A DNA stretch of 64,000 nucleotides. It comes from Botryllus schlosseri. Taxonomy: Eukaryota. The stretch covers positions 30,940,001 to 31,004,000 of the forward strand of contig CM119372.1 in the NCBI GenBank assembly GCA_051294905.1. Direction: 5' to 3'. This document shows positions 1,425 to 63,362 of this stretch, piece after piece. The translations under genes were made by a program, and so were the position numbers. Below the pieces are notes generated by a model. The model was not told the origin of the DNA and made no database searches. It worked only from the letters and a program-made list of their open reading frames with translations. Position 1 is the first letter of the stretch. Each line of letters begins with the position of its first letter.

Positions 1425-1590
1425 TTCGTCAGATCAGAGCCCCTTTACCGTTTTTCTGACTCTTCATCCATTTGAACAACGGCAAAGCATCGTCGCCGTT
1501 GACTTCAATTTTGGAGAAAAGGTCGTAGGCCTACTTGGCGTTGTAAGTTTTCTGCGCGAATTCCTTTATAATTTCATTAGTTTCTGGTTC
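1425..1590 (-). pseudogene. GPX4: GPX4/PHGPx-like glutathione peroxidase pseudogene, central exon (disabled)
   Basis: ag|GAA CCA...AA|gtaagt encodes EPETNEIIKEFAQKTYNAK[*A][31 protein letters not shown], matching GPX4 EPG.N.EIKEFA..YNVKFDMFSKI.VNGDDAHPLWKWMK..KGKG. Contains an in-frame TAG (TAGGCC insertion) and a 5-nt TCTGA duplication giving frameshift/stop. Confidence 0.88.
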
Positions 1591-2401
1591 CTCTAAAATA
1601 TCAAGATATTCTATGAAGACTTACTGCTATTTGGAAGGCAATCGGGTGGCATTCATTCATATCTATATACTATTATTACAAATGACCCCATTCCACTATA
1701 CGACCGCATTGGTCCTCTGAATAACGTTAGATTCGCAGGTCAAAATAGTTGTCACACAACCGACGTGGCAAAATACATGCATTGCATCTGTTGCTGCCAA
1801 ACCAACTACCTGCGTTACAGGTAGGACGTATGAAGAGTCAGTATGGTATGGTCTGTCAGTCCAAGTCGGTGGACCACCTATTAAATACTTGTTTACTCAA
1901 AGAGTTTCAAAGTATAGCAAATGATATGAAATTCCTTCGGTTTATAAAACTCTACATTTTCATCAATGTCATAGTACCATGGGCAAACCACTATATGACA
2001 GTGTTGGGATGACTCGAGTCACCTTTCTCGTATGACTTGACTTGACTCGAGTCATTTTGCTAAAATGACTTGACTTGACCTGACTAGGCGTATCAGAAAT
2101 GCGGATTGACTCGTGACTCGGAGCAAAATTCACGAGTCAATTTCAAGTCATCAAGTAATCGGTGTCGGTAAAATTCACTGCATCTTCCATATGTTCGGAT
2201 TGTTCACGAAACGCTGTTGTAACCAGTGAGAGCGACCGATCATTCAATGATCGTATGTTTTACTGAGTCCCCATTGTTTTTTCACAAATATATTGACAAC
2301 AAACGAAGTGATCGAAGCTCACAGCTTGTGTTGTCGTAAACTAATAGTAAAGTAATTTAACAGCAAAATATCCATTTCTGTTATTTGTTCTTACCTTAGC
2401 C

Positions 2402-3549
2402 CAGTGGTTCCCAACGTGGGCGATATCGCCCCCCAGGGGGCGATTTGGCGGTCTAGGGGGGCGAAAATAACGAAGGGGGCGATGGGGGGGGGCGAAAACG
2501 GACGAAGGGGGCGATAGGGGGTGAAAACAACAAATGGGGCGATAGGGGGCGATGGCGCGTTAAAACGGCTTTATTGGAGTCGGGACCGTAACTACCGCAC
2601 CCCAACCCTCCCCCGCAATTGAGGGTGGGGGGCCCCGAAGCCGAAGGAAGCCCAAAATTATTTCGTGAATTAATATGAATGATAGAGTAATTTGATATTT
2701 TTATGAATGATAGAGTAATTTAATATTTTAATGTATCTTGATGTTTGGGGCCCCGTCACCCAACAAAATCCGCATGATTTTATGGAAATGGGAGACTTCG
2801 GCGTCGGCCATTACTGCGCCACGACGAACCAAGACATATGAAGTTAGAGGCCATGTAACATGCGACTCCGAGAAGTGTGCCAGAAAGATCTGCAGCGAGA
2901 AGACCTTGGCCGAAAAGGAATGCCCTTGTGCTTACCGAAAACTTCGATATATATACATATATGTTTAATTGTCTATAGGCGCCTCAGTGGCTGGCGTCGA
3001 ATGTTCCTGTCCTGGCGACCTTAGCCCTACAGGACAAATGCCCTCCCGCAAGGAAAAAATTATTTGCCAGTAAAGAAATACCAATACGAAATCATGTGCG
3101 TCTTTTAGTTTGGTACGTTTTGACGATTTCCATATCTTCTGGCATAGCAGATATAGGAGGTCACGAAATAGCATCATGTAAAGAAGTCAATATAACAACG
3201 ATTCCGCCCGAAGATGTTCAATTATTATTTACGGGTCCTACCTTTTTCAGCATACCACATTGACCATATTGACCGATATGAATTTGTCGCGCTTCGCGCG
3301 TTTAGGCGAAATACGGTGACTCACCAAACAGTACATGAAATAGGGTATAGCTAATACGTAGCGACAAAAAGCCCACAGTCTGAGGGGGGTCTGGGGTTTG
3401 GTTTATCACCCTATGGGGCCAAAGACCAACGTTTTTTCCGGGGGAGGGGCTGACGAAGTGCTGTTTTTCGGTTCCCAATATTTGGGGGGCGATGATCGGT
3501 GTTGAGCTTCAAAGGGGGGCGATGAGTCGAAAAAGGTTGGGAACCACTG
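2402..3549. mobile_element. hAT (Charlie/Buster-type) MITE carrying captured internal sequence
   Basis: TIRs CAGTGGTTCCCAAC / GTTGGGAACCACTG; perfect 8-bp TSD CCTTAGCC (2394-2401, 3550-3557); GGGGGCGA subterminal repeats. Confidence 0.93.
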
Positions 3550-3768
3550 CCTTAGCCAAACATCTTGTTTTATTGAAATTGAATTCGAATATAGCTTATA
3601 CTCCTCAACCATTGGCGCAGGCTTGAATTGTATCATATCAATTCGTTTCTCTATTTTGGCTGGTAACTATGAACTGAGGCTATGCAATTACTTACGTAGT
3701 TTAACAGTTTTACGTATATGTGAGAGATAGAGCGCCTTCTTGCGTGTACTGTACATTCAACTCTATAT

Positions 3769-4894
3769 TAGGGTTACCATATTTCTGCAACCCAAATTCC
3801 GGACACTTTAGTGCCCACTAGTGGATTTCAAAATTAGTTATGACGTCACAATAGCAAAGCTTTGCTCACGGATCAGAGGTGGCCACGATCCGGTTCAGGA
3901 GTATGTGGCTGTGTGTTGTGTAACCGGGACCGAAAGCACATGTTTTCAGCCACTTCGAGCGCAAATAAACAATGATTTTGATCCCACACTATAGGGTAAT
4001 CGATGCAACTTCTGGGGGGAGGGGTGCTTGCTATATGAATCAAGTTTCTATATGCTTCTGGTCGTTAAATTATTTGAATGAATTCTGTCAATGATATTGG
4101 TTGTTCCGGGGCCTACGATACGTAGGCCCCGGTTGTTCTATGTATTACTATTTAAATACTACTCTCCGCCCACATGATCAGAGTTAGCGGTACAGCTGGT
4201 GGAGGATGATGAGTTCGAAAATACAGGGAGCGTAATTGCCCATCGTTAAGTCATGCTCATGTCCTACCGATAAGATTGCTTGTCAGCCTTATGCCGGTGC
4301 GCGCTACGGAGATTTATAAACACCCCATATCCAGTGATTTCGACTCCATCTCCAATTCGAAAATGTTCCGTGGCCCAGATCAAAATTTGACGAGCTGATT
4401 ACAAAACGAAGTCAACGCCTTTGCTAAGACTTACTCACGCGCTATTTTGGAAGCTTATTACATTCAACATATTCGCAAACTCCAGAATAAAGGCAAGCTT
4501 TGAATTAATCTTTGAATTAGGCATTCAAATTGCCTTGACGATATCTAGGAATATACCGTTCTCCTATAATTGCCATTACAATTAGGATTATTCCGGTAAA
4601 TGAAGGTTGTTTTTATTCACATTTTATCGCAGTTTTTGCGAGGATGGTAGTCTCTATATTAAAATCAATAAATGTGATAGCAAATCGCGCGCAACGCGAA
4701 GAAAAATATCATGCATCAGCATAAATATTCTAAAAAAATACTGTTTTCATGCTGATTTACGAAAAAATTATGATCCTACGTGAAGTCTTCAAAATTCCGG
4801 ACATTTGGCATATTTTAGAAATTCCTCCCGGACGCTAGCTTGAACAGTGAAATTCCGGACATGTCCGGGAAATTCCGGACGTATGGCAACCCTA
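3769..4894. mobile_element. hAT (Tip100/Blackjack-like) non-autonomous element
   Basis: TIRs TAGGGTTACCATA / TATGGCAACCCTA; AAATTCCGGAC subterminal repeats at both ends; TSD degenerate (CTCTATAT vs ATCCATAC). Confidence 0.8.
4107..4131. mobile_element. 25-bp hairpin insertion with 7-bp TSD (candidate minimal P-like element)
   Basis: CGGGGCCTACG-ATA-CGTAGGCCCCG (perfect 11-bp arms) flanked by direct repeats GTTGTTC (4100-4106, 4132-4138). Confidence 0.65.
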
Positions 4895-5341
4895 ATCCAT
4901 ACAAAGATATGAACTGACGGCTAGTGGCAATATTAGCATCAGAGGAAGGTCACCAGTGACTGCTTACTTCTTATTCCAGTCGAAATCAATTCAACAGTAT
5001 TTGTGGGATGTCAGACAAACAATGTTATTAGCTTACTATATTTATTGAAGCGGCGCTGCGTAACCGCATGTTATATACGGCAAATGACAAAAGTCCGCGG
5101 GATTGGGTGTGCCACACACACGCACACACACAGCTATTTCATGCAAGATCTCGTCCTATACGATATACGAGCTTACAGCATGACACAGCGTGTCGCAGCA
5201 TCAGGTGTACTCACTCTGACAGTTGCACACTGCACAGTGCACACTATTAATTTTCGGGGTACGACAGCTGCTATTCATACCAGTCAAGGAGCTTAAAAGG
5301 TCACGAGAGCCTAAAAAGGAAAAATTATCAAGACTCTAAAG

Positions 5342-7407
5342 CAGTGATTTCCAAGCGCCGCCCCAGATAGATTTCTTGCGGCCCCCAAAATATATCAAGA
5401 AATCGATTCATGACAAAAAATGAAATTTATATTTATAAAATACTGTTGCTTGGCTTGGCCTCTGTAGTTTTTAAATATAGAATTGCAGGAATTTGCAGGA
5501 AAGTTGTGAGTATAGACTGCTAACGTTACGTCACTGCTGTTTCAATGCAATGTGCCCTAACTGTCCAGTTGAACGAGCAGTAGCTATAGATATAAATAGG
5601 TATTGATAACTTTCAAAACCGGAGGAAAATCCTGAAAAATGGTAAATTTTTCCCACTTCGTGGCCGCTTGACTAAATAAGAAAAAGAGGCTCAACTCCCG
5701 GAAAATAGTTTTTCTTTCACATTAACAGGTGGTTGACTGAAAAAAAAGGTCAACTTTCCAGTCCAGCTCCCGAAATAGCCGCCGTAGCGTTCCTACAGTG
5801 CTGACTTAATGTATATCAGTCGAATTTGGCCCTATATGTAACCAAAATCCTCAAAAAAGAAGACAAAATCTCTAAAAAGACGACATTTGGGCGTCCTCCG
5901 AGGACACTTCAAAAAAAATCAAAGAGGACAAATCATCTTAAAAGAGGACGTATGGTAACACTATGATAACTAAATGTGCAACACGTGACTCACGGTTGAA
6001 TACGCCGAGATGCATACTGCTTAGCCGGCTAAAAGCAGCATAATTGGTAGTCCTATAGTCAGGGCCGTAACTGCCGCACCCCAAACCCTACAATTGAGGG
6101 GGCCGAGCTCGAAGGGGGCCCAAAATTATTTCGTGAATTGGCATAATTCATAGAGTATTTTTTTGAAAATTTACGCAACTTTTTTGAAAATTTTTCGCGC
6201 TATGCGCGATTTCAATTCGCCACATATCTTGATTATTGGGTACTCTTCCCCAAGAAAAAATACGCAAGATTAATAGAAATGGGCTTATCAGCGTTGGCCA
6301 TGACCGCACCACAACGCACCAAGACATATAAAGTTTCAGGCCATGTAACATGCGACTCCAAGAAGTGTGTCAGAACGATCGTCAGCGAGAAAGCCTTGGC
6401 CGTAAAGGACTGCTTTTATGCTGACCAAAAACTTCGAAATACCAAAAACTTCGTTGTATATACAAAATACATATAGGTTTAATTGTCCATATAGGCGCCT
6501 AAATGACTGGCGCCGAATGTTCTTGTCTTGGCAATCTGAACCTCACAAGACAAATATCATCCCGCAGGAAAGAAAATGATATGCCAGTGAAGAAATACCA
6601 ATCTGAAATTGTGTGATCTTTCAGTTTAGTAGATTTGGGCAATCCTACATTTTTGATATAGCAGACAGGAGGTCGCGAAATAACATCATGTAAAGAAGTC
6701 ATACCTAGGGGTCCGTCCGCCGAAGATGTTTTTTTTACTGGGTCTACAGTTTCAAATACACCTCTCACTCCGCTCTACCGGTAAATCTGATTACGTGGGC
6801 AAAGAGGGCAACCATGCAATTCCCGATCTTATTCACCGATCTTATCATGAATTATCAAAATATTCGTGCGTCGCGCTGTCTCACTAAACAGTACAACTTT
6901 AATTTCGTGGCAAAAGCGAACAGGATGCGGGGTCAGTTTATCACCCTATAGGAGCGCGGGGTCCAGAAGAAGTGCTGTTACGTTCCTGCCAACGGGTATA
7001 CCCCCGGAGATGTTTGATTACTATTGAGGGGGCCCATACCTTTTCAAACATACCTCACTCAGCTCTACCGGTAAATCAGATTACGTGAACAGTGACAGGA
7101 TGAAAATTGATCGCAATACATGCAATTCCCGATCATATTGACCGATTCAGTCATGAAACTAAAGAAATTTCTCGCGCTTGGCGCGTTTAAGCGAGAAATG
7201 CTGATTCTCTCAACCGACACCCAATGCAGCAGATAAGTAGCGGTAAACAGTGTACAGTTTTGAAATCTCGCCAGGGCAATAAAACTACTCCGAAATAGTC
7301 ATAATGACTGTGTGGGTCCGTTTCATAGCCGTAGTATTCATGCGGCCCCGACCGTACTCTGAAATTCTAAATTTGGCCCTCACACCGAAAAAGTTTGGGA
7401 ACCACTG
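5342..7407. mobile_element. Composite hAT (Charlie-type) MITE with nested fragments
   Basis: Ends CAGTGATTTCCAAG / TTTGGGAACCACTG; imperfect TSD CTCTAAAG / CTCTATAA; contains a Tip100-like end (~5940-5962) and the CAGGGCCGTAACT segment (6060-~7000). Confidence 0.65.
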
Positions 7408-9524
7408 CTCTATAAAGATTCAGGGCGTGTGGGATTTTCGACAAGTCTTTCATTACACGCACTGCGTAGACTACATATACAATGTACATGTACTCGTACC
7501 TTGCAATGCCTGAACAATTGAACATGCGTTCATTATGACCGCTAATCAACACTGTCCACCACTGCTAATTAACATTGGTCGATGCGGATCACAGACTATG
7601 GCAAGACTTGGTTTGGGGGTACGAATATTCGCCGTATAACGCTCGCTGATATATCTCATGCGTCGATAGAGGCCCGTAGGATAAATATATTCAGCCCTAT
7701 AGGATTTGCCATGATAGCTCTTCTACTGTGAACAACTTCAGTATCTATAAGTCGTAGATATACAAAAAAAAAAGGACCTCGTAGTAGGATAGGTTACCCA
7801 ACTTGAGGTAAAAAAGAAAGCCAGATAAATGCATTAGAACAAGCTTACATTAAACCGGGATTTAAAGCGTTTCGATGACGCCGCAGAGAAAAGCTACCAC
7901 TACCTCAACGCTCCCTTCATCTACAACTGACAAATACTGCTAGCGTGCTGTTACCAGGCAAGGAGACGGGATCAAAAGTGTGATGATTAACGTCCGAGGG
8001 TAAATCATAATTGGATTGGATCAAATGGAGGACGCGTGGCACTTATTACCAAGCTACTTTCAAGCAGCTGCATATCTATGATCTGGGTACTGTGCGTGAG
8101 ATTGGAGCCCGCTTGTCGAAATTAGAATCCGGATTGTTTGCTTCCAATATCTCGTATATCCATCGTCATTTTCAAAGGGGGTATATAATATCGGAAAGCT
8201 CCTTTTGCTTCATTTCCACTCCCCTGTTTGTGTAACGAGAGAACGTCCCGGTGGCTGTCCATGAGGGGTGTTCAAAAACTTTTTGTTTCAACTTTCATAG
8301 GCTTACTTGTCAAATCGTCAAGTTAGCCAAAAATCGGTGCATGCCAAATTTGACTCAATTCCAAACAGTAGATGCCGAGGTCAGCCAAATTGAAATTTCG
8401 GCCATTTTTGAAATAATTGTATTTACGGTAGCCAATTTCGTCACTCCGACATGACCAAAAATCGTGTCCCAGTTATGCCTGAAGAGGCAGGAATGTCTTT
8501 CCATTCGCTTCTATCTTGACAAGGGCCTACGGTGGATTTTGGATGAAGACATCGCCAGTTAACTAAAAAAAGATATGACACGGATTAGCTGGAATTAGTG
8601 CACTTCATTGAAATAGCCACGTTGAAAGGATGGTGAGATCATTTTCAAATAGAGTACTTTACAGACTGAAATTAACGACCACGAAAAGGAAATGACCTGA
8701 CAAGCAGGTAAAATATGGGTAAATATATTTCTCAAGTGATAGTCAATATCTAGAAAAACTTTTGTCGGATCAATGTAGATTTCACGAAATCAAAGCGAAG
8801 TTTGTGACTGTATTCTTCACAATGCATTGTGATATTATGATATATTATTATTTGCTTTTAAGCACTCCTATATTCCTCTTACAAGTGAATTGTGACTTAT
8901 GGAAAATACATTCTATATTCAGTGGAATTAGATTATCCTTCATTATATGTATAGTGAACTCGGGTCATGTATCGATAGGATGCTCGAGGAATCTCGCCTT
9001 TGGTTCATTATGATCACAATTTTTCCTCCAATCAAAAGTTATTGTATTCTTGTCATTTCATGTCCTTCGAACGTTCGCACCACCCATACCAAATACAATC
9101 ACCTGAGTGAGTAACGGGTGTAGGGTGTAGTTAGACAAAGCCCACTTGAGCTCGACGCAAAACTAGAAGTACTTCGCTAATCGAGACGCCAGCTTTGCAG
9201 TTTACGCCAGGCTCGTAGCCAGAGAGGGGCGGTTCGGGGGTCGGAACCCCCTCCTTTAGAAGCGCGAAACCCCGTCCTTTTCAAATGAGCGTTCTGACGC
9301 TAATACTCGGTTGCAGTTCAACAAGTCGTATTATCAGTGTTGCGCTCGGCCAATTACCGAAAGGCGTGTTGCCGATTAGCGAGATTCGTCCTTGCGCCTT
9401 GTACTGCACAATGTAACACGAAAAGATCTCCCGCTGAGATAATTGCGAAATTAGGTCATTCATTGCCGCGCGCTCGGCAATTGTTGCTATCCTAATTTAT
9501 CGCGTCTCCAACAAGCCTAGTTCC

Positions 9525-9685
9525 GCTGGCTTGAATAATCGCATCTGCAATAGGCCCGGTGCGCACTATCATCGTTGGCCTGCCCTACACAATCGCACCT
9601 GCATTGGCGTGGTGTGCACGATATCATCGCTGGCCTACACAATCACATCTGCAATAGGCCTAGTACGAAAGATATCGCTAGCCTA
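9525..9685. repeat. Degenerate tandem repeat, ~3 copies of a ~50-55 bp unit
   Basis: Recurring CGCTGGCC..ACAATCGCATCTGCAATAGGCC.GGTG...ATATC. Confidence 0.7.
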
Positions 9686-10539
9686 ACTCCAGCGTCTTGG
9701 GCCTACCATGCTTTGGCTCCTATTTCCCGATGGCTTGGATAAAATGCCGTTAGGTATATGCTGATTAGCGATTGTCATTAAAGAGTGACATCTCGAAACT
9801 GAATGACATCGACTGTCCGCAAACATGTGCGTCTCGTGCGTACATGCGTAATTGAATTCCGCTAATACATTTTGACTCGCGCAAATCGTCGCCGAGGCTA
9901 CGTAAGACGCAGGACGCATTGATAAGCGCGCGTATTTGTTGTTCCACGTGTTGATAAGCGCGCGTAAACAAGGCCCTTGTTTGAAAAATGTTTTTTAGGC
10001 CATTACGTCATGAAATGTGACGTCATCGTGGATTGACATTGATTGTTGAAAATATATGGTAAATATAGATCCTTTGACGAAATATCTTGCTGTTGAACCG
10101 ACTATTTTGAGGGTTCCAACCATCTCATATCGATATACGTCAGCTTTATCGGGTGGTAATTGTCCGACGTACGTAGGCTCATACAACATCTTTCTTGGAA
10201 AGTATTTACACAATTATGGCATAATTTTACAACTTAATAAAAACACATTTTTAAAAACCTTTGTACCAAACAGGTGTTTTAAAACACCGTTTGTTTTAAA
10301 TGCAACCCTATCTACATCACAATGTTTCATCGTGCGCTTCTTGTAACATTCATTTGGCCTTTTATGATTCCCAATGAGCAGTTAATGATAAGTTTACCGG
10401 CAGTGCAAACATCTACGATACAAACGAAGTGCAGGTAGCAAAAAATGTTTGACTTTGTAAACAATTTTGACAATTTTTTGACCTAACCCTACGATTTTGA
10501 CATATTTAAACATATCAAAAAAATCGACCTAGTCATTAC

Positions 10540-11556
10540 TAGGGCCATTTAAAGTCATTAAAGTCATATTTTTTTCTATGCATCAGTAAGTCGTGAAATC
10601 AATTTTAACGCAAAAACCGCATCCATATGGGGTATATTAAGAAAGTTATAAAGTCATATAAAGTCATATTTTCCTGGTTAGGTCATATTTGAGTTATAAA
10701 GTCATATTGTTGTATACTTTGAATAAAAAGTGCCAATTGACGCAATTACGCACTAAGAAAGTAAGGCAATTTCCGATTGAACGAAGGCAAACTGTAAGGT
10801 TAGCCTACATAACATTACAGTCGCAGACCTACGAGGTCACACATTGCATTATGAGGTCACACATTGCATTGTGTTGCTACACAATCTGTTTTACTTCTGT
10901 GCACTGAAGTGTGACGTCGTTTGAAGTTCCGAGACTTCCACAAGTGAAAGAAATAGTCAACGCATGGGAAGCTGAAGGAGTTATTGTAAAGAGCGTCAAA
11001 GATTCAGTGAACGATCCAAAGTTGACGAGTTAACAGAAATATGCCTCCACTACAACAATATTTCAAACTTGATACTGAAAATGTAACGTACACTATCAAA
11101 GAGGCTCATGCTGATCTAAATGCCCTCGAATTCGGAAAAGATCCTCTTGAGCTCAAAAATTCTTTTAAGAAGCGACTGGACAAAAACGATGTGAAACAAA
11201 TTATGGAGCTACAAAGACAAGACATTTCACCAGCGCTGTATGCAAAACTGCAAAAGTGTCAACACACATCAGCGTCTGTGGAGCGCTCATTTCCCTTACC
11301 AAAGTCATTTTTACGTCCAAATCGTAACTTAAAAGACTCAAACATTCCACACTACATGAAACTACCACAAAAGTGGTTTAAAATAAAAATGGATGCGTAT
11401 TACTGTTATATTGTTCATGTTTTACTCGTCAGTTCCATGAGTGACGTTGGTTACATGTAAAAATACACGATTTTCGCATAAAGTCATATAAAGTCATATT
11501 TTACCAAAAATAAAGTCATATATTTGATTTTTTAAGGTCATATAAAAATGGCCCTA
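10540..11556 (+). mobile_element. Internally deleted hAT element with transposase C-terminal remnant
   Basis: TIRs TAGGGCCATTT / AAATGGCCCTA; perfect TSD GTCATTAC; AAAGTCATAT subterminal repeats; ORF 11041-11460 has TSASVERSF, the hAT C-terminal catalytic Glu/dimerisation motif. Confidence 0.92.
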
Positions 11557-12254
11557 GTCATTACATTACATGACAAATCCCATGATACTCAACTTCTATA
11601 TTCTGCCACCATGACGGAACTTTAACTGTGATGTAACAATCGAATTACATAGTATGACTCTTTGGGAATTACTTTGAAAATATGAATATGACTCTTTTGA
11701 TTAAAAAGATTCCCGAACCATGGTTGACCCCAGAGCCCCAATTGCGTTGAGTTATAGATCATATAAAGTCCCCTGCTATTACTAAACGGCGCTTCTTGAT
11801 GCGATGGAAACATATTTTCCCGGCAATGATCTACACGTGCCCACTGGCGCCTTGTTGCGAACCATACCCATATTAATCATAGAGTTAGCACGAACCATGT
11901 CATCCTTAATATTACATCCCCCGTCATTTTTTTTCAACAACCATGAAGTTGGTATATATTTCCTGTTGCTCCTGCTGTTCGCTAACGCGGCTAATCCATT
12001 GCAGAAACATTAAACCCGCAGACGATTTTATATTTTTGGTCGTACTTCGCAGCTTACATAATAAATCATCCAAACAAGAAATATCACAAGAACTATCAAC
12101 GACGAGAGGAAAGGAACTCGGTAAATTTAATCGAGTCAACCTATATACATTTTAATAGTGTGTAACTGTGCAATTATGCGTAAAGTAAAGACATAGTATA
12201 TTAGACTTGTATATCATCACTATTCTACGATTCTACTACTACTATGCTGTTTTA

Positions 12255-14299: not shown

Positions 14300-14884
14300 A
14301 TTGCAACTGGCTCTGCCAATCTTCGGATACGTATCGAACTGCCACTCTATAAATCCACATTAAAAGCATCGAAAACTTCTTGCTCCAGAGATACCGTAAA
14401 CGGTATACGCAAGATTTCCAATGCCGTTTATACAGACTGTAATTAATGTGCTTATTTCGGGCGAACGATCCATATTTCAAGTAATCCGACAGTCGTAAGA
14501 GGCAGAGAACTATATACTCAAAGGTGTATAATCTATCGAATTGATCACGTCTGCGAACGCATATTAAAAGCAAGTCATATTTTACATCACATTCCGTTTT
14601 TTCATAGAATTCGTTCCCCGTTCTATTTTCGATTTCACGGAAACGTAATGAAGTCAAAGACGCAATTAGCCTCCGTAATTGGATCCTTGCTTCAAGTCAC
14701 ATGTGTTTCGAGAATCGATTGATTGTGCATCTCGCTGATACCCAATGAATTTTAACTTTAAAAATCTGAAAAAAGATATGTAGCACTTAAATATGGTCAA
14801 ATACTTGATACTCGATAGAGATGATGGAGATGGTCTCATCTCACGTAGGTATACATTCTTTATCATGTTCTGTTGATGACAGAC

Positions 14885-15172
14885 CAGATGTACTCAATCT
14901 GGGGGGCATGAAAACATCTGAATGGAGGCGCGAAGCTTCGGTCAACTGAAATATCTTTTCGCGTTTGGCGCGAATTACCGTCAATTCATTGTTATCCGAA
15001 TTTCATATTTGAGAATTTCTCTCATCAAAATGAGTCATAACATTCCATGCGATAAAACTATCCGTTGGGATTGCTAGTATTCTGCTTGCATTCTGTGATA
15101 TGACGACAAGGGGGGCGCGGAACTTTTCACTATCATAAAGTGGGCGGGTCTAAAAAAATTTGAGAACCACTG
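14885..15172 (+). mobile_element. ~300-bp Charlie-type MITE (family also at 15945, 36980, 40621)
   Basis: Right end TTTGAGAACCACTG; internal sequence alignable by eye with the other copies; no clear TSD. Confidence 0.75.
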
Positions 15173-51915: not shown

Positions 51916-52716
51916 TCACGGCCCTTTCGCCGGTCGAATTTTCATCTCTGTATACCTCATCGCCATCTTAACACCGCGCTCTTGATCGTACCACAACATC
52001 CACCCGAACACGCGGTTTAAATTCGCAGCGTAGCAGCCGTTGTACCACCAGCCTCCCTCGCGGTTCCCGGCGCAATTTCTGTCGGAGTTGTCGTGGTCCG
52101 CGTCTCTCGTCGAGAACTGCTGGCGGTTGGAAGACCATTTCGGCGCTGAAGGTTTCGAGAAGGAATCTGTCGCGTTTCCGGAGTAACCGGACACGCGCAG
52201 TCTGTAATTTCCCGATCCGGAGCCGACGTGAAACGATCTGTACCGTGCGGTTAAGTACGTCCCGTTTCTTTCGATCATGTTGATTTCCAATTCGTACCTT
52301 ATCGATTGTGTCAGCTGGTGCAGTTTTTCCAAACCTAGCCAAAATTCGGCGTGTTTATTACCGAATCCGTTTACGTAATCGGCCCAATCTCTGTCGAAAG
52401 ACACAATGCCGTCTGTCCGCCTTTGGAATACAGTCCATTCGCTCACTGCTCTTTTCACTTTAGTCTTCCTAGGCCGTTTATTCCGAAATAGTTTGAATGC
52501 CCTTTGCAGTTCTTCTCTGATTATTTGCCTTACGAGCGTGGCGTTAAAGTCTTTGGAAAGCAACGCGGTGCTATCGGATTTCAAGTTTCTTGCCAGCCTG
52601 TTTTCTGCGTGAATTTCGTTGCAATGTTGGCAGACCAAATCGTTGAAAGTCGGCGGAGTGTTGTGGGCACTGATGCTTGAGATTACCAAAGCAAATAACA
52701 CGAATGAAACTTCCAT
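51916..52716 (-). CDS. Secreted fibrinogen-related domain protein (FReD; ficolin/angiopoietin/tenascin-like), 266 aa, coding region intronless
   Basis: Signal peptide MEVSFVLFALVISSISA at ATG 52716, preceded by tttcag acceptor; FReD motifs WTVFQRR.DG.VSF.RDW.DY..GFG, EFWLGLEKLHQLT, YRLRVSGYSGNA.DS, FSTRD.DHD....C, GGWWY..C..ANLN. Confidence 0.93.
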   Translation of the reverse strand: MEVSFVLFALVISSISAHNTPPTFNDLVCQHCNEIHAENRLARNLKSDSTALLSKDFNATLVRQIIREELQRAFKLFRNKRPRKTKVKRAVSEWTVFQRRTDGIVSFDRDWADYVNGFGNKHAEFWLGLEKLHQLTQSIRYELEINMIERNGTYLTARYRSFHVGSGSGNYRLRVSGYSGNATDSFSKPSAPKWSSNRQQFSTRDADHDNSDRNCAGNREGGWWYNGCYAANLNRVFGWMLWYDQERGVKMAMRYTEMKIRPAKGP

Positions 52717-54511
52717 TTCTGAAACACGCACTAACTGTACAGTACACAGCTGAAGCAAGATTGTACTGTTTGAGGACATTGTATGATGTTCGTGTCTTTA
52801 TATCCATACTTTCTTTTTAATTCGTGCGTTAATATGCCTCATTATGTTTTTTGGTAATATTTCTTCTTCATAGATAGTGGTCGATGGTGAACTTTGGACG
52901 CCTGTCGATGCGATGCTGTAATCTAGGTACGTGCAGTGAGATAAACATATCGATTTGTACGCGTAAAGCTCTTTTGTGGTCGTGGATGTCGCGGTCTTGT
53001 TAGTCAGGGCCGGTGTCACGCTGTGACTCGGTGAGACGTGGGGCTGGCGAAAAGTACTACGCGCGCATTTCTGAATTTTTGAATGGAAAAATAAAGAATG
53101 CCGTCTGTTCTGTAATCGATATCGAGTGACAGTCTTTATGAAACTCTGTTGTGACGTAATAAGGATTTATCTCGGGAACAATACTCCATGATATTAGTAA
53201 TTGATGACGTAGTGTTTGACTGAATTAGTCTCCGTATCATAAACAAAACACTTACGTGGGGTGACCATTGACCGCCAATTCGATTTTCCAATGAGCTGGT
53301 CGGTATTCGGGGTAGAGTTGGTCAGAAACGGAGTACTTTTTCGGAGCACTAGACTGGCTACCTCTACTTCTACTTGAGCAGCAACGCTGACTGCGCTGGC
53401 CACCTCTGATTCGAATTGCCCGTTTTTCGTCTTGGAGGACAACTTCCCAAAAGTTTGAAATAGACAGATTCATAATTGGGTTGGATGGCCATTCCGCCGA
53501 TTCTATACATTGAAATGATCCGGTTCTGTAACCGAAATACCCGACTCGAATCAGTGACTTACAAATTTCGAGTAACCAAAATGCTTAACCTTAGTCGTTT
53601 GATAGTGGTATTTACGGCTGGTATTCCATAGACTAGCCAACGATGTAATCTGAAGTATGCAGACTAAATACAGATTGCGACGAACATAATGCGTGATAAT
53701 CACCCTGGTAACGATTGTCAATCCGATTATGTTCAGTTAACGCAACCAGATACTGAAATAATGGGTAGGTAAGTGTGTTAAGGCGCTAAAAGTGGTTTCC
53801 GCCGTGACTTCCGCCATTTGATGGTGACAATAATATTTAATCAGGTACGTGGAATAGAACCATGCGTGATGCGACCTTAACATCCGCCACTTAGCATATG
53901 CGACTAAGGTTGTATGATTGGGGCATTGGAATCTGAATCGAGCACTGAAACCTCAATTATTCGTGTCGCAACAAACCAGAATGGCTGCGCACGTTGGTTA
54001 GAGTGACACATCTGTGGAGTCGTGATCAACCCACATCATTTTTACAAAGCGCAATGAACTATGCAACCCCGGGTGTCAAACAAGCGGTAGAAGTATTAAG
54101 TAGGAGTGTAGGATGTAAAGTGCGAAAGTATCACCGTCAACGACCCTAAGTTGACCCAAGTATGGCAAATTTAAAAGACAAGTTTAAATTGTTTACATTT
54201 TTCCGCTTGAGTGATCTCAAAATTAGGGAATTTTTGAACGGTCATATATATTTTGTTCTAGTTGACCGAATATGATGAAATTTATTTTCCTGAAATCATA
54301 AAATGAAGTTTTGTAAGCATGTCGTACCAATTTTCATGAAATTCCGAGATAGTGGGTGACATGGCCTGGATCAACTGACATGGAATGACTCAGGCATCGT
54401 CGAAAGAAGTCTAATCTTCTGTGGACCTGGTATTATATTATTTGTGGCTGAATCAACGGTACATGTTTGAAATTCTCGCATGTTCCGTACTGGTATGACG
54501 TCGTAATAAGC

Positions 54512-54994
54512 CAGGGTCGGGCAACTTCTCCAGGCGGCGGGCCGGATATCGGTAAATGACGTACTTGGCGGGCCGGATTCCTAGTAATCGTGTATTTATC
54601 CACCTATACAATTTTACCTATGCCTATGCAATATTTTATACACCTATGAAATCGTATATAATGTGAATTTTAAGTTGAAACATGACTTTAGTACCGTATT
54701 ATACTTCAATGAGATCTGTACTCGATCAAAGTTGTCGACAAGTTATTTGAACTCCAGTTGCATGTCGGACGTAGAAACCCTTGGTACAGACTGCACGTGA
54801 GCATTAGTTAAATTGGAACGCAGCTTTGTCTATTCATTTGCATGGTCGACAATTTTTGCTCGCAAATGTAAGTAGACACGAACAGAACAAGTAGTTTCAT
54901 GGCCAACTTTCTCCAGCCACATTATCTTGTAAGACCGGGAAATCTCTGCGGGCCGCTTAAAATATCTTCGCGGGCCGTATGTTGCCAGTCCCTG
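54512..54994. mobile_element. hAT (Charlie-type) MITE
   Basis: Ends CAGGGTCGGGCAAC / GTTGCCAGTCCCTG; TSD TAATAAGC / TGATAAGC (7/8). Confidence 0.85.
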
Positions 54995-55689
54995 TGATAA
55001 GCGATACTCTGATTCTCAACTCGAGTCGAAGCCTATAATACTCGATTCATAATCGAATCACCCAGGTACTCGATATTGTCAAGTCCTATATGCGACAAGT
55101 CGGTAAGATTAGGGATAAGGTTGGGTTAGGATTCGTTTTATAGGTTTAGAATGACACATGCGAAAGTTTCGTTATACTGTCGTTTTTCAATGGCGCACGA
55201 TCAAAAGTTGGCTGCGATTTAGACGAATAAATGAAGTCTAGGCCTGGAGATGGCGTCTGGAACTGTAACATCTCGGATACTATTCATGGTGATGAATGAA
55301 GCGGCGCGCAACCTTGCTGATAGCGATCGTTGTGGATCGAAACACGTATTCGGGCGATAACGTCTCAAGTGTAGAATCTAATAATTCTCGTCCAAATAAA
55401 TACGCGGAAGTTACTGACGTATTGACGTGTGCCGCTGTAAAATCAGGACATCGGAATATAAAATTCAAGTTGCGCCACCTGGCACACGACTCGGTATTAC
55501 AACTGGAGAGCGGAGATGGGATGTATAGTCGGTAAATCATATATGCTTGGCTCATTGTTTATAAATAAACACGATGGCGTACATAACACCCACCTAAATT
55601 ATCGGCACGGATCTTATACGAAGTATCTAACATGTTGCCAGCCCTTATCCGTTGCAACGGAATACCGATTAGGAATGGGCGCAATGATT

Positions 55690-56104
55690 CGAGTGGGGTG
55701 GTGAGAGATTATTTTGTTTCGAGTTCTGAAATTATACTCTTTTACCGCTAATAGTTTATAAAGCAATGAGAAATCGTAGTTTCGATGCCATTACCCACTG
55801 TGAAAGCCACAACATACCAAACATGTAGCCTAGTAGAGAGTCACGCGCGGTGATGGAAATGACGTGTCTGCAGAGTCGCAATTAACATACGGTATTGTCA
55901 CATAGTGCAATAAAATAGGTCGAGAAAATACTAAATTAACTTCAATGTGATGTAGAATTACAATTATTTTCTTCGTGGTCGCATAGAAGTTTCATATTTG
56001 AACTTCCCGCGTCTTTCATCCACGAGTGACATCATTATGAGTGGTAGGCTACTCGAATATTCGACAGAATCGACTCTCTCAGATACTCGATATTGCCCAG
56101 CCTT
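55690..56104 (-). mobile_element. Decayed inverted copy of the 30267/59198 MITE family
   Basis: Ends ..ACTCGATATTGCCCAGCCTTA; internal sequence is a diverged reverse complement of 59198-59712. Confidence 0.6.
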
Positions 56105-57193
56105 AATACGATGTTACTGGCCGTAAACGCTATGCAATAGCGGGCGGCTTTCAATCTGTATTACCCGATAGTGCTTATGTCAGTTGAAAAGTTGAGCAAT
56201 AAGCATTAATGAGCAAATTGAGCAATGAGCATATTCATTGTCCAAATTACTTTGGAAATAATTATGATTTCCGGATGATTGATGAATAGTAGCTTTCATA
56301 GCTAGTGCAGTACGTGGGTGTTTCTGCAGTGTGTCTAACTTACTGGTATTTCGCACGTTTTTCAACGACCCGGAAACTCGGTTGGAGCGGGACGCACTCT
56401 TGCTTGATCTACAATTGCAAATTTTGGGCCCGACTCCTCAACCCGTTGAAACACTGGCCTCATTGTGACCCCAAAAAGTCGCATCTCGACCAGGTTCATC
56501 AATTGTTCACTCACTCATCAGAAAGTGAGCTGCCGAGCTAATTTCGAAAATTGTAGTCTGTTCTGAGTCGGACACATTCAATACTTGTTCCGCCTGTAGT
56601 GCCATCGAGTCCCTCCCCTTCCGATTAAAAAAATAAAAGTAAATAATAAAAAAATATGCTCTTTCGTTTTACCGCACATACTACAAATCATGGATTTCGA
56701 CATACTAATACTAATTACAATACTGCATTTAATTGTAAAGCGCTGCCAATAACAACCACGATTAGAGTTATAAGATAGCACAGATACTGACAAGATGAAT
56801 CGATTTCGCGCGGAGTGACGACAGCAATTAAAAGGGCCATTTCTACCCCATTAAAACAACAACAGTACGCACTACGCATGTCGCTTAACAGCAAATCGCA
56901 AGTGAAGTTAATCAGTGCAGCGTTCCGAAGTGCGCACTCCAAAGACAATTACTATTTCTTATTGGCGTATATAAGTGTTCGCAGAAGGCATCACGCGATT
57001 TACATGCCGCCGGGTCTCATTAGCGGCGTAGTGGACGATTATATCCAGTATGTTAAACGGGTGGACCCAAGATTGCCTTTGTTTCTACAGCACATCGGCG
57101 GTATATAGTCACCCTTCTTTGGGGATAATCCTTACTGACGCGAAAGGTAGTTAAGCCTGCTCCCGTACAGTAAGAGATACTATACGCGACCGA

Positions 57194-57477
57194 ATGGACC
57201 GGCCCGCAGCCGAAATAATCGAATTCGTTCGGTTCGAACCTAATCGAATACAAGCTTTGGACTATGTCGTGGTGGGACGGGCGGAGTCCCCGCAGGAGTC
57301 AGTTTTGGGGAGGTTACTGTCCGGCGGGCGCGCGCATGCGCGGAAGTACTTTGCCGACGTGGAGAGGTTGCAAGATAACTTCGTCTTCGTCCCGGCTTTT
57401 GTTGTTTTTCTTTGCTTTGCGTTGTCGTACTTCAAGGGCGTGCTGGAGGGCGTGTCCCGAAACGGAAAATGTCAGAA
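57194..57477 (+). CDS. TMEM181: Candidate alternative first coding exon of TMEM181
   Basis: GC3-rich open frame, acceptor cccgtacag at 57170, donor GAA|gtaaga in phase 2 joining exon 61059 in frame (..GKCQK-SIQMRLY); includes a hydrophobic segment FVFVPAFVVFLCFALSYF. Confidence 0.5.
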
Positions 57478-59197
57478 GTAAGATATGCTGTAATGATTTG
57501 CGGTGGTAACGTTGATAAAGGGCGTGGAGATGGATTTTTTGCGTATCTAACTATATGTAATGTATCTAGAATGGAGTGATGGTTAGCAGCCAATCCGTCA
57601 CTTGTTGAATGTAACATTTTTGGAAATGAAATAACTGTTATCAATCGGTATGAAAGCGATGCATCAATATTGTATCAATGAATTCGACAATGAATTTTTT
57701 TCACTGAGCATGAATTGTGGAATACGGCTCCAGGTGAATTCGGTATGTAGAATTCGTGACACCGCACTTGGTATGTATGTAGTGATGTGTTCGGGTTAGG
57801 GTTAGGGACGGAGTAAGAGCATAGAAACATTTCACAAATTCGATTACCGGCTTTCATTCTTACTTGACAATTAGAATTACCGGTATCTAGTTTTCCAAAT
57901 CTGCATTGACCGTAGATATTCCACAGTGACATATTGATGTTTGATAGGGCGGAATTGATGGCTTCAGCAGTCTTCTGTGAACTGGTACGTGCGGAGTCTC
58001 GTGTATGTTTAAATTGTTCCTTGCTCAATGTTCATTTTCAGTGTTGACCCGTTATTGAATCCGAATAAATTCACGAAACCACCGTACCGTTTAGGACGGA
58101 GCATGGACCGGATCCGGATTGGATATCTGACGGACTTTTTCATTTTTAACCAGAGCCGGATCAGTACTTTTTCTGATACGGCCGGAGGCGGATCGGGGTC
58201 GGACCAGAGAATTGAAAAACAGGATCGTAGTCGGACAAGAGAATTTGTCGATCCGCTCCGGACTAATCTCTAGTATAGTTGCGTCACACTTGACGCGTTA
58301 GGCGGTCAATTACGCGCATTGTTTATGACAGTTGTCCGACTACGGTACTCTATTTGAAATCCGTTATTATGCATGACATCATTTATGACTTCAGGATCAT
58401 GTCATCGTGTTAGCGTGACATGATCGCGTCGATTGCCGAGTGCCAACCACGCCAGTTATTTTATAGCATTTAGTAGTGGATGGCACATCGGAAATGTTGT
58501 GGAAGTTCCGGCAGTGTGCTGTGTCGTGATTTCCATCGACAATCCGAAGTTGGTCACCAAACCGTATCAAATACCCTCTCGAATGTCACATCACCCAGCA
58601 TTTAGACGTAGGAAGCATGTCAGGAATCCATATTGAGATCGAATATTTCAGACTGACCTTTTCCCTGGTTGGCGGTTGAGCTTTATCTTAATGAGAATCA
58701 AACACGGTTTGACGGCAAAGTTGCCGGCCACGACGGGCGATCCCTACTAAACTTAATTAAATGAATCTGCATTCTCGGCGGATGTGTCGAGATTTCTTGT
58801 GATTGTGTTTAATATTGGAGACTATTATTTATAAATTACTCTTGCTACCACTATTCAAACACATTGTGCTGACACGCCTTGATGGTCTTGATCTTACAAA
58901 ACCGTCAAGATACGTTGTAGGCGTGATTCATAATAAAACTCCATGCGTCCGGCGTGCAGTAGAGATAGGAAATTCAGCATTGTTTCGAATTTGAACTTGT
59001 GATGTTAGCCAAGTCGCTGTGCGATTTTAATTAAGCTTGGAATTTCTACTGATTTTTAGTTGTCAATTAGACTTCAAACGAATTAGAGTCGGTAACAGGG
59101 TTGGACTTGTATTTGGTTGTAACGTGGAGATATTTCAAGGTTAGGATTCGGAAATGTTAAATCCGCCCGCCGGCGTTGGCCGTTAATATCTTAACAC

Positions 59198-59712
59198 TAG
59201 GGCTGGGCAAAATCGAGTATCTGAGTGATTCGATTCTGAATCACGTAAAATGCTTCGAGTCGAGTCGAGTATTCGAGTATCACTCATTATGGCGTCACAG
59301 CAGAATGTACTATGTCAAAGTTCAAATATGCCCCTTTTATGCTAACACGAAGAACATAATGCCTGTTATCCGTCACATTAACGATACTTCGGTATTTTTT
59401 CGTCCATACCGATTTCATTACACTTCTTGACAATGTTGTGGGATGATCGTGACTTCGGAAATGTGTTATTTCCAGTAACGTTCGTACCTTTGTACTATGT
59501 CTCTTATGCTACGATACGGCCAATCAAGGTTTCAAGGCTTCAAAAGTGGAAAATAGTATCAAACCAATAATTTTCGTTAGCAAATTAACTTTCAGTTGCG
59601 AGGAGCGTATAATTTCAGTACTCGAAAAAATCGTCTTCTACTACTCGACTCGAATCATTAAAATTAATACTCGATTCAGATTCGAGTACTCGAATCATTG
59701 TGCCCAGCCCTA
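59198..59712 (+). mobile_element. hAT (Ac-type) MITE, family copy 2
   Basis: TIRs TAGGGCTGGGCAAAAT / ATTGTGCCCAGCCCTA; perfect TSD CTTAACAC. Confidence 0.94.
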
Positions 59713-61058
59713 CTTAACACCTCACATTCTCAAGCCTGCTATGTAATCCTTGTTGATCATTCACTTATCACGCCATTGAGAGTCATCCGCGTGCCCAGGG
59801 TGTTAGCGCGATTTGGTTAGCAGACCGCCGGAAATTGCGAATTGCTAATGGTACCGCGTCTCGTGTCGCTAATGTTCAATGCCGGCGCTTGCGATTGTTG
59901 TGCACTTTCGGCTGCCCACGAAGTCCCGTGTAGCTTCATTTTCAGGCCCTCTATTTGTGACGTGGACCTACTTACTCTCTCCAAGTGTTGCATTCACACT
60001 TTACCTAAAAATACACGCTTGCTTTTAATGCCCTTTAGCACAGTCTTATCGAAAAGATCCAGCACTCATGGTATGCATGTGCTCATACCGTGTGTATCTA
60101 TATAATGAGTCGGTGTAAATGCAGCGAAAACAGCAAGGACAAAAAATAGACTACGTCCATTGAGCTGAAGGGGTGCTCATGCTGTTGATCAGGTCTCCCA
60201 CTCTCGGAAACTTAGGTTTGGAAGATTTGTAGAGTGTGGCGTCACGGCGCGAAATCCGATGCACTCAATTCATGGCTATATTGACGAACTAATGATATTA
60301 CTTAGCCACCCGTCACTATTTTTCTCGCCAAGCCATCGTCGGCATTCTTTTGTTGTGTAGCAAGGGTGTGAGAGTTATTTCCGCCACCCACCCCCTCACA
60401 CGATTGGAAGCAACTCACTAACGCAATAACGAATCGAAAGGTCACCACATTTGAACACTCAGCATGATTACTCACACCAAGTAATTTGTCATTGCTTACC
60501 CTCTCGCAAGGCGCGTAATTACAATGATAACACTAACTATGTTATACAACATACTGCCGACGAGGGGGAAAGATAACCGTCAGTACGTAGAGTCACGTCT
60601 GTTGGTCACAAATGTCGGGTGATAACATTGCTTTGAAATAATGGAATGAAAGGGAAACGATAATTTTAAACTGTGATCGTGTTTTAAATGCGGTTGTATG
60701 AGGTTTTGATCTGTTAGGATTTCATCTTGATTGTGGCGATGTATAGGATGCGTGATAACTAGCTGGTAGATATCAATCGCATTATTCTTATCCTGCTGTG
60801 TTTATGGTTAATTCAGAGTGCATGCACCCTTCAGATGTGTAAAATTGCTTATGGTGTCAAAATACTTGATATATGTTATGGTAAATTCGGCGATTCATTC
60901 GTCGGTTATATACTTCTTTTGTTGATATCATAAGAGGGATTTACAATCGCCGACGGCTATATTTAAGACGATTTCATGACCTCACCTGTTGTTGGGTTTA
61001 ATGATTATGTCGATTTGATTTATGGAAGCTGTTTTACTGAAGTTTTCTTTTGTTTCAG

Positions 61059-61162
61059 GTCAATTCAAATGCGGCTTTACACTCTGACGAAGCGGCAGTT
61101 TGCGATGGTCTTCGTGGTGTTCTTTTCATCGTTTCTTCTCACTGTTCTGATCGGACTGGCAG
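61059..61162 (+). CDS. TMEM181: TMEM181 (GPR178) exon encoding the first conserved TM segment
   Basis: tttcag|G TCA ATT CAA ATG ... GCA G|gtactg encodes SIQMRLYTLTKRQFAMVFVVFFSSFLLTVLIGLAG, closely matching TMEM181 MRLYTLSKRHFVLVFVVFF.CF.LT...G..G. Confidence 0.92.
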
Positions 61163-62288
61163 GTACTGCACAATCGTAACTAACGAGTTATTCGGCACTT
61201 ATAAATACTATGTGGGGCACTCGACTTAGATGGCAAATTCGCTGACTGCCACCTTGACGTGAGATGTGGCCATGAAGCGCGTTCGTAAATGAATTGGCTT
61301 ACGAGCAGAAGGGTAGTAACACGCAAAAGAAACTGCGTAGTTCTGGCGTCGAGCACTGCGTATGATGAAATGGTGTGTTGGATATGACAACAATAATTGG
61401 TGAATGAATCAAAATTCGAATCATTAATAGAATGCGCCCAAAAGCACACATCTTATAAGCCACCACTACTGTATTTGTTTTATAGCTGGTTCGTGGTACA
61501 GAACTTGAAGATAGCTTTCAATACAACATCCATTGTAGCAAAATATTTATTCAACTCGAAGAATTTTCGGGTGGCTCTTTTCAAGTTTTTTGTAAAAGTC
61601 AGAGGCAGGCACAATAGTCATCAATGGTACTCAAGTAGAAGTTGAAATAACGTCACAAATTTTTATTCAGTACAGGTATAAATATGGATGTTAAAAGTAG
61701 GCTAGTTCATAAAGTAGACATGGTCAAGGTATCGTTCCTTTAGTAGTCTTTCGAAGGTGCAAGATGCATCTAATGCAAAATGGATAATTCCACTACAAAT
61801 TATGAAATGTGCGAAAATATATTCAGTTACCGTAATACAGCGGCTATTCCGCCCGCTCGTTATGAGGATTTCACTCGTAATTGTAATGGGAACATCCCGA
61901 AACTAATTTCCACTTTACAAAATCTGAAGCTTAAAAGTAAGTAGTAATTGTTTGGTGGAATTGGCGTATTAAAAAAAATAGAACAGCTGACTACAAGCAC
62001 TCTGAAAGATTAAAACTACTTCGTCATGGACCATCTCAGGTAAAAGTGTACGTGAATCTACAGGACCACAGACAAAATTGTATTAATATGGAGCTATCAA
62101 TTGAATTGCAAGTCATATTGGACAAGGCCAGGCGTACCCAACCTTTTATACAACGCGGCTCCCTTTGAAAATTTTAAAAACTAAACGCCACCCGCTTATC
62201 ATGTTAAAACCTTTAAAAAAATCAGAAAAACATCGTATATACAGTTATCGTGTATACAGTTATAGTGGATTGGACATAGGTTATAGAC

Positions 62289-63362
62289 CAGGGGTTCACA
62301 GCCATTTGTTGGCTGTGGCCCATTTTACGGTTTGAAAATGTTCTGTGGCCCACCTCTTTTCAAGTCATAGTGCATTTCAATGTGTGGGAGGCTAATCGCC
62401 GCCGATATGGCTATTTCTCTATAGTATACGTATTTTTCTTTTATTACTGTTAAGTGTTCATATTTAAATGTCGATTCGAGGGAACATGAAATCGCGCTGA
62501 CGAAAAATTTCAAGGTAAATAAATCCCCAACAGACACCCAACGAAATAATTATTTGCAACTCAGAGCTCTTCCAATTGAGGGTTAGGGGTGCGAAAGTTA
62601 CGGCCCTGCAATATCGTGTAACTCTTGCGTGCCTCCTCTGTTCCACTCAACTCGCGAAACCCATAATGATCCAATCTCTGCATTCACTGTGTGATTGGGG
62701 GCTCAATTCCACTCTGGGGGGGAATACTAAACCCATTCTGGGCCCGCTTCAAACAATTCTTTGATGAATGGGATACTACAGAGAAGTGGGGATTTTTTTT
62801 TGAATATGCTATTATTACAATGTAGGCCTACCTAGTATATGTCTTGTACCTTTTGAAGTCGCGATGTAATAATATCAAATCCAATGATACCACCAATTCG
62901 TGTGACTCTTACATTATGTACAGTGATTTCAAGGCCGGAGATTTGTAGACCGACGCCAAAGATTAATGTGCTGTGCCTACTTCTCAATCCATTATGACCC
63001 AGCCGGAATACTTGGATATTTCAGCATTAACTTTCAGTTATTATATCATCGAAATTATTTTCGATGCTGTTGGCCGGAGGTTGTCATTGCTGGGGGTACA
63101 AAAGCCGATATATCCCCACCCATTTCGACTTGTACATTCGTGACTCTATACGTACCACCAAGTCCCATCAGAGTTGGATAAAAAGCTTTATGTAGCATAC
63201 GTATAATTCAATAACATCAATATATATTTTTTAACATATGAACAAAAGAAAAATGCAACTAAACTTTCACGAATTCTACAATTTTCCAAACAGCTCTGTG
63301 GCCCACCCAAATTACTCCTGTGGCCCACTAGTGGGCCATGGCCCACCCTTTGAGAACCCCTG
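62289..63362. mobile_element. hAT (Charlie-type) MITE in TMEM181 intron
   Basis: Ends CAGGGGTTCACA / TGAGAACCCCTG; perfect TSD TTATAGAC; TGTGGCCC subterminal repeats. Confidence 0.92.

Follow-up and report, generated by a model that had tools for sequence, protein, structure and literature searches.

A stretch of 64,000 nucleotides of the Botryllus schlosseri genome (assembly GCA_051294905.1, contig CM119372.1, positions 30,940,001 to 31,004,000; hereafter, the window) contains eleven copies of the palindromic word TAGGCCTA and 23 of the related seven-letter words TAGCCTA (12) and TAGGCTA (11), listed in Table 1. The original prediction, made from the letters alone, regarded these words, in which a short GC core is enclosed by two TA dinucleotides, as excision footprints of a TA-targeting transposon. 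The eleven positions that it gave for TAGGCCTA are all exact. Its estimate of about one chance occurrence is close to that of Markov models of order 2 and 3 (0.46 and 0.83, respectively), and the twenty or so further seven-letter words that it announced were counted as 23, versus 4.55 expected. Seven of the 34 words crowd into 1.4 kb of the window (39.4–40.7 kb; scan statistic, p=0.003). The proposed clustering in old sequence was thus confirmed, but not the assignment of such sequence to a long interspersed nuclear element, as none of ten open reading frame pieces from this stretch matched reverse transcriptase (RT) or endonuclease Pfam families and tblastn with 16 RT-like open reading frames found no match in the window. 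No paralogue of the 39.0–40.6 kb interval was found. As a whole word, TAGGCCTA had no match in a literature search covering article text only (not longer printed sequences, figures, supplements, subscription journals or Repbase), and the matches of TAGCCTA/TAGGCTA within the same scope were unrelated by title.

The excess of these words extends over the whole genome. A sample of 40 evenly spaced stretches of 10 kb, drawn from 16 contigs, contained TAGGCCTA 25 times versus 3.7 expected, and TAGCCTA/TAGGCTA 104 times versus 37. Across the 495.5 Mb of the genome, TAGGCCTA occurs 43,701 times, compared with 9,854 occurrences of the reversed control and 3,071–4,194 under Markov models, and seven-letter words in the R-TAGGCTA-Y context occur 76,921 times, compared with 12,496 for the control. 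Both words are over-represented relative to their controls, and TAGGCCTA also against a Markov background, the check proposed with the prediction; the counts above control therefore correspond to an excess of about 100,000 sites or more.

The words are insertions of 5 or 6 nucleotides (nt) at single TA sites, with duplication of the TA, and are referred to below as scars. A 6-nt insertion had been predicted at position 1526 from protein homology; all four paralogues indeed lack the six bases, and two of them (L002 and L003) show a clean, empty CG-TA-C. The host sequence is a decayed fragment resembling glutathione peroxidase (GPx; GSHPx, E=7e-4 over 28 amino acids (aa), below the cut-off), located within a 1.3-kb segment of the minus strand (window positions ~700–2000) that is repeated at four other loci (L002–L005) with 71–79% identity. 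When 679 kb of sequence was surveyed, 36 copies of TAGGCCTA had a homologue: a 6-nt gap was the majority state at 10 of them, the word was shared at 22, many of which represent one scar copied within young transposons, and the remaining 4 showed substitutions or other gaps. Similarly, 15 of 66 seven-letter words with a homologue had a majority 5-nt gap and 27 were shared. In an unbiased catalogue of insertions private to single repeat copies (1.36 Mb), TAG(G/C)CTA accounted for 11 of 27 private 5-nt insertions and TAGGCCTA for 8 of 36 private 6-nt insertions, so that scars make up 19 of the 63 private 5–6-nt insertions in repeats. The same catalogue held 120 private 2-nt insertions, 48 of which turn TA into TATA, often after C and with no enrichment in G-TA-C, possibly by a second TA-duplicating process.

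Scars also differ between individuals. Contigs of four other samples (X6–X9, from two studies) were compared over window positions 39150–40560, an interval picked for its scar density. The scar at 40164 is absent from all four samples, five other scar words are kept wherever covered, and X9 carries its own TAGGCCTA at 40387, where another sample has TA. A 7-nt TA-GGGAC-TA insertion at 39330 is missing from two samples, and an extra TATA (4 nt) at 39630–39641 of the window, relative to other samples, is likewise polymorphic. Direct proof of insertion is confined, among the eleven copies of TAGGCCTA in the window, to those at 1526 and 40164; for the seven-letter words at 26685 and 37613, weak alignments show homologues that are shorter by 5 nt. 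As proposed with the prediction, comparison of repeat copies and of other samples thus shows that empty paralogous and allelic sites reduce to a single TA.

Repeat pairs at 86–99.7% identity differ by 1.2–1.9 scars per 1,000 mismatches (pairwise; 41, 12 and 3 distinct scars per bin). The process is therefore recent and steady, and it is still ongoing. Moreover, scars lie inside repeats that are 92–99.7% identical and are therefore as young as the GG-ended transposon families described below. The claim of a genome-wide micro-insertion process agrees both with the genome-wide counts and with the private and polymorphic scars.

Table 1. Scar words, variant sites and other features of the window (window coordinates)
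Feature	Position	Strand	Evidence or remark
TAGGCCTA scar, 6-nt insertion at TA in decayed GPx-like fragment	1526..1533	.	4/4 paralogues 6 nt shorter
TAGGCCTA word, doubtful as scar	9655..9662	.	Sole homologue differs by substitution, no gap; may be chance word
TAGGCCTA word	32751..32758	.	Exact word match; no usable homologue
Variant TA-GGGAC-TA, 7-nt insertion, TA duplicated, starts GGG	39330..39338	+	7 letters absent at 39329 in X6, X9
TAGGCCTA, common to other covering samples	39376..39383	.	No gap in X6, X8, X9
TAGGCCTA, shared; further 2-nt insertion within it in X7, X8	39986..39993	.	Sample contigs
TAGGCCTA scar, polymorphic, empty TA allele elsewhere	40164..40171	.	6 letters absent at 40163 in 4/4 samples X6–X9
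Scarless site in window; X9 = TAGGCCTA, X7 = single TA	40386..40390	.	X9 insertions behind 40387, 40388; C>T at 40388 in X6–X8
TAGGCCTA inside dispersed repeat, alignment ambiguous	40724..40731	.	Mixed gap classes in 17 homologues
TAGGCCTA word	45018..45025	.	Exact word match; no usable homologue
TAGGCCTA word, G..C context	46509..46516	.	Exact word match; no usable homologue
TAGGCCTA word	51705..51712	.	Exact word match; no usable homologue
TAGGCCTA word, G..C context	62823..62830	.	Exact word match; no usable homologue
23 words TAGCCTA/TAGGCTA, first part: 574, 9679, 10801, 17774, 18047, 18716, 19322, 19715, 24259, 26685, 33023, 37613	within 574..61704	.	
23 words TAGCCTA/TAGGCTA, second part: 39844, 39977, 40115, 42172, 44700, 48350, 49251, 50353, 55826, 56045, 61698	within 574..61704	.	
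Seven scar words clustered within 1.4 kb of old, low-copy sequence	39376..40731	.	Scan statistic p=0.003
hAT-type miniature element	2405..3549		CAGTGGTTCCCAA ends, 8-bp target duplication
7TM receptor split across two frames	13249..14359	-	
Fibrinogen-related protein in single frame	51916..52797	-	PF00147, E 1e-48

The spectrum of cores is narrow. In the G-TA..TA-C context only two cores exceed chance, GGC/GCC (39 versus 2–4) and GGCC (14 versus 0.3), and neither GC, GG or G nor the bare TA shows any excess. Genome-wide, in the R..Y context, GGG+CC is also over-represented (1,535 versus 264 for the control; Markov 390–630) and GGC+GCC was found 100 times versus 48, and there is no enrichment of GG-W-CC (354 versus 520 for the control) or GGG+CCC (29 versus 32).

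Candidate donors were identified by searching the genome with the DDE_1 profile, which gave 72 matches. Among the families whose ends could be resolved (40 loci inspected), four are GG-ended, two end in TA|CCG and one in TA|CAG. The four GG-ended families, which end in TA|GGGTAGAGT, TA|GGGGAGAGT and TA|GGGGAGACC (the last in two families), are 2.8–2.9 kb long, with terminal inverted repeats (TIRs) of 22–26 bp and copies 94–99% identical. Their proteins match DDE_1 (PF03184; E=1e-25 to 7e-19), and the three checked (L111, L122 and L131) all contain a DD35D triad, accompanied by HTH_psq just below the cut-off in L111 and L122 and by HTH_Tnp_Tc5 at the cut-off in L131. Judging from the triad and the HTH domains, these elements would belong to the pogo/Fot-like transposons; named relatives are from molluscs, a leech, a barnacle and Hydra (1,296 matches at E<=1e-30). 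Additionally, a 1.38-kb GG-ended miniature inverted-repeat transposable element (MITE) is represented by 657 ends at <=1 mismatch, compared with 7 for the control, with a median identity of 95.5% among 20 copies, and another end word has 146 matches. An end word with 743 matches was discarded as mostly an unrelated repeat. The genome thus holds about 1,000 intact GG ends and about 500 recognisable copies. The window contains neither a pogo end nor a transposase piece, in keeping with the earlier remark that no full-length donor is visible there.

Some features of individual copies are recorded here. The terminal G-run of GG-pogo copies varies from 2 to 5 G (L133, L134, L138, L142 and L143); L133 has lost one G at both ends, and one end of L138 reads TA-GGC-GGAGACC, as if a cut end had been rejoined with an added C. 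Of the 20 MITE copies (L286–L305), 19 have TAC as the right flank on the + strand and 8 have GTA as the left flank, whichever way the element is oriented, perhaps by chance. At L266–L274 (C3:460-492 kb), four repeat units, three of them spaced by 6 kb, carry the same GG-pogo end with an identical flank.

The GG-ended elements share their target with the scars. Empty paralogous sites of the elements reduce to one TA, and at 68 of 123 element ends (55%) the TA follows a G, compared with 22% of all TA (p=2e-17); the corresponding value is 52% for halves of the eight-letter scars and 47% for halves of the seven-letter ones. When flanks were compared as unordered pairs, 45 elements and 56 scars did not differ (p=0.18). 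Furthermore, the scar core GG+CC matches the two outermost bases at either end of the four pogo families, a correspondence that holds only for a 2-nt stagger. A 3-nt cut of GGG ends was rejected on the counts of GGG+CCC given above, and TAGGGTA is not enriched either. A sensitive search with the IS630 model (NF033545) gave 48 matches with GG-pogo on top and found no other family of the IS630-Tc1-mariner (ITm) group; of the non-pogo matches, which include a group of 1,400-aa frames, two were inspected, a Merlin-like frame and an exon of a paired-box gene. At L327, a Merlin-like transposase frame lies between the pol-like and env-like frames of an LTR retroelement.

We therefore consider it probable that the scar words are excision footprints of the resident GG-ended pogo/Fot-like (DD35D) transposons and their MITEs. 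The element inserts at TA, with a preference for G-TA-C, and, as its empty sites show, duplicates the TA. When the element leaves, its transposase would cleave one strand at a point 2 nt into the element at either end, so that each flank would carry a 3' overhang of GG. End joining with zero overlap and filling of both overhangs would yield TA-GG-CC-TA, and joining with one mismatched G:G column would yield TA-GGC-TA or TA-GCC-TA; the latter product resembles the skip-ahead filling ascribed to polymerase mu. Because each jump would leave a scar that outlasts the stay of the element, a few hundred mobile copies would accumulate about 100,000 scars. If a mutation rate of 1e-8 and 500 copies are assumed, the measured scar rate would call for about 1–2e-5 excisions per element per generation, which is not extreme.

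Scars of this kind have precedents. Staggered cuts by ITm transposases leave 2 or 3 nt of terminal bases on the flanks, which are repaired by non-homologous end joining (NHEJ) (bioRxiv 10.1101/659086; PMC2874221), and the stagger is 2 bp for Tc1, Tc3, mariner and IS630 (bioRxiv 10.1101/659086). The footprints of Caenorhabditis elegans Tc1 and Tc3 are alike in the TA duplication around two terminal bases per end (+4 core), in NHEJ repair and in the 2-bp stagger; 78% of the somatic excisions of Tc1 end in a +4 scar (PMC13148408), and TACATGTA has been cited as a Tc1/Tc3-type footprint (PMC3520976). However, the NHEJ scar of C. elegans is somatic (PMC13148408), whereas the scars described here are inherited and number about 100,000, their core is GG+CC and is more often 3 nt than 4 nt long, and cores of 2 nt, such as those of TACATA/TATGTA left by Tc3, are not enriched. 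Sleeping Beauty (SB) and ZB likewise leave two reverse-complement seven-letter words that differ at the middle base (TACAGTA/TACTGTA), but these words derive from CAG termini with overhangs of 3 nt, whose GGC-ended counterpart was not found here, and the many shorter footprints that SB also leaves are absent. Within the pogo superfamily, Passer leaves 0–4 bp on excision (PMC9976928), and GGG/CCC ends and footprints are not among the features described in the material consulted on pogo, Fot/Fot-like and Passer DD35D elements (PMC7386202, PMC9976928, PMC7325037). Natural empty sites of the pogo-type MITE Emigrant (Lemi1) of Arabidopsis also keep TIR bases (PMC1636448), in two cases there as opposed to a genome-wide signature here. 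Most likely, the kind of scar is a known one, and what is unusual is its scale and its spectrum. Accordingly, the predicted TA-targeting footprints stand as regards the TA duplication, with excision by the ITm group as the best explanation, but Tc1/mariner proper was not found in a loose first look at the genome.

Several observations weigh against the attribution to GG-ended pogo elements. The conversion of an element into a scar was not observed at any site. Sites in three states (empty, MITE-filled and scarred) amounted to 2 of 292 homologues, which equals the background rate of 0.5–1.2%; one of them is clean, with the MITE in L298, TAGGCTA in L044 and an empty site in most other copies, and the other has a rearranged junction. 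No element allele was seen at 6 scar sites in 4 samples. Two further candidates were dismissed: all 4 units of the tandem array on C3 hold the element, and the apparent scar in L274 proved to be a substitution. Scars outnumber donors by about 200:1 and intact donor ends by about 100:1. The chemistry raises difficulties as well: two GG overhangs are unable to pair with each other, and yet the product seen most often calls for a mismatched overlap; and independent trimming of the two ends was rejected, as it predicts about 100 extra TAGCTA in 664 kb and none was seen. The CCG- and CAG-ended pogo relatives do not fit the scars. CCG-ended pogo elements with open frames are present, yet TACCGGTA, considered as their mirror scar, is absent from the 36 private 6-nt insertions; this word is enriched 3.8–5.8x but is mostly repeat-internal and shows a 6-nt gap of any kind at 1 of 33 sites, so that no mirror scar is detectable. 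The base preceding the TA differs weakly between element ends and eight-letter scars (p=0.04), and the agreement between elements and scars beyond this base is modest (r 0.32–0.42). Finally, slippage of G runs within old scars could also account for the GGG+CC excess, as could GGC ends joined with an overlap of 1 nt.

GGC ends are the starting point of the main alternative, a possible but clearly less favoured one, in which an unseen TA-duplicating GGC...GCC-ended element leaves 3-nt overhangs in the manner of SB, whose canonical 7-bp footprints arise by this route (bioRxiv 10.1101/659086). A 3-nt overlap with a central mismatch would give GGC/GCC and a 2-bp GC microhomology GGCC. Such a donor fits the strict two-product spectrum (39 versus ~3; 14 versus 0.3) as well as GG-pogo does, and abundance follows pairing strength, from the seven-letter words (76,921, R..Y) through the eight-letter word (43,701, all contexts) and the nine-letter GG(G/C)CC (1,535) to GGCGCC (100, versus 48 for the control). 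Nevertheless, as scars are still forming, this donor should be present, and the GGC...GCC termini put forward in the original prediction were found neither among the surveyed transposase families nor among TA-flanked inverted repeats in 1.6 Mb. DDE_3, Transposase_1, HTH_Tnp_Tc3_2 and Zator-type searches (PF13358, PF01359 and PF01498 among them) gave 0 matches in the genome in a loose first look, at which absence is not proven; moreover, pogo proteins scoring above the DDE_3 cut-off were overlooked by that search. The sole GGC-starting, TA-flanked TIR family with a transposase in the 1.6 Mb is an ISL2EU element that duplicates AT, and the resident TA-duplicating donors end in GGG...CCC; the same scan also turned up a second GGCC-starting pair (L250) and two longer palindromes. 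Neither Tc1 nor mariner transposases were detected at this first-look depth in the genome, where PHIS (891 candidates) and pogo are common. Tc1, mariner and Zator were accordingly rejected as donors for lack of matches at that depth, with pogo as the only ITm member among the IS630-like proteins. Sailor (DD82E) was rejected on its published GT or CC starts and TATA target site duplication (TSD) (PMC8533490), given that the scars duplicate TA only; hAT elements with TAGGG...CCCTA ends on their 8-bp TSDs, unlike the scars; and Harbinger families with TTA|GGC ends on their 3-bp TWA TSD, TAGGCC followed by other bases not being enriched.

The ISL2EU/PHIS elements deserve separate mention, as their ends read ATAGGCC...GGCCTAT and a young 4.7-kb member (DDE_Tnp_4 plus YqaJ, copies 99.6% identical) seems to present TA|GGCC...GGCC|TA, DDE_Tnp_4 having 891 candidates in the genome. 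As a source of the scars they are very improbable and largely refuted: comparison with its empty site reveals AT, within A-AT-T, as the dinucleotide that L057 duplicates, so that the TIR starts AGGCC, the A|AT|T target is described for the group (PMC4482050), sister families share A-AT...AT-T (16 PHIS families or copies inspected), and AATAGGCCTATT is found in 0 of 56 eight-letter scars, most scars being G-flanked. The two copies, L056:3038-7732 (C7) and L057:2299-6994 (C11), have TIRs of ~190 bp starting AGGCC and convergent transposase and YqaJ frames, and 9 of 9 ISL2EU copies seen carry TAGGCCTA between the two genes. A host process other than excision could write the fixed GGCC/GGC core, either by adding nucleotides, with or without a template, where the DNA breaks at TA, or through the abortive integration of fragments of transposon ends. 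It would account for the high scar-to-element ratio, for the failure to catch a conversion and for the fact that CCG- and CAG-ended pogo leave almost no scars. We regard it as unlikely, however, since what defines an ITm footprint is an invariant palindromic core flanked by duplicated TAs, GGCC cannot arise from TA by slippage, and the flank bias of the scars matches that of resident elements. Least probable of all is that the words are a selected protein-binding motif or a repeat-internal word instead of a mutation product. An abundant TACATGTA palindrome in Phytophthora has been read as a binding site (PMC3520976), and 22 of the 36 tested eight-letter words are shared with homologues, many inside young transposon copies; but in large part these represent a single scar multiplied together with the element that hosts it, copies that differ do so by exactly a 5–6-nt gap, and scars are private to single repeat copies and polymorphic. 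As an origin this reading is refuted, although some sites may have been co-opted later.

Transposon activity is usually counted from surviving copies. In B. schlosseri, recognisable copies number about 500 and scars about 100,000, and excision has therefore been far more frequent than copy number suggests if the scars derive from the GG-ended pogo elements. Excision would thus be a measurable source of small insertions, the scars representing 19 of the 63 private 5–6-nt insertions in repeats. A 5-nt scar shifts reading frames and a 6-nt scar can introduce a stop codon, as at 1526. Scars are, moreover, polarised and polymorphic markers, and they can mislead motif searches. The strict two-product spectrum provides a testable statement on the cut chemistry of a little-studied pogo lineage and on germ-line end joining; if it is true, the scars are a natural read-out of how unpaired 2-nt overhangs get joined. 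We tentatively propose that one widespread GG-ended pogo lineage, together with faithful germ-line end joining, may write a two-product signature comprising about one third of the 5–6-nt insertions of the genome, and that scar density may serve as a cumulative, datable counter of jumps far beyond the surviving copies.

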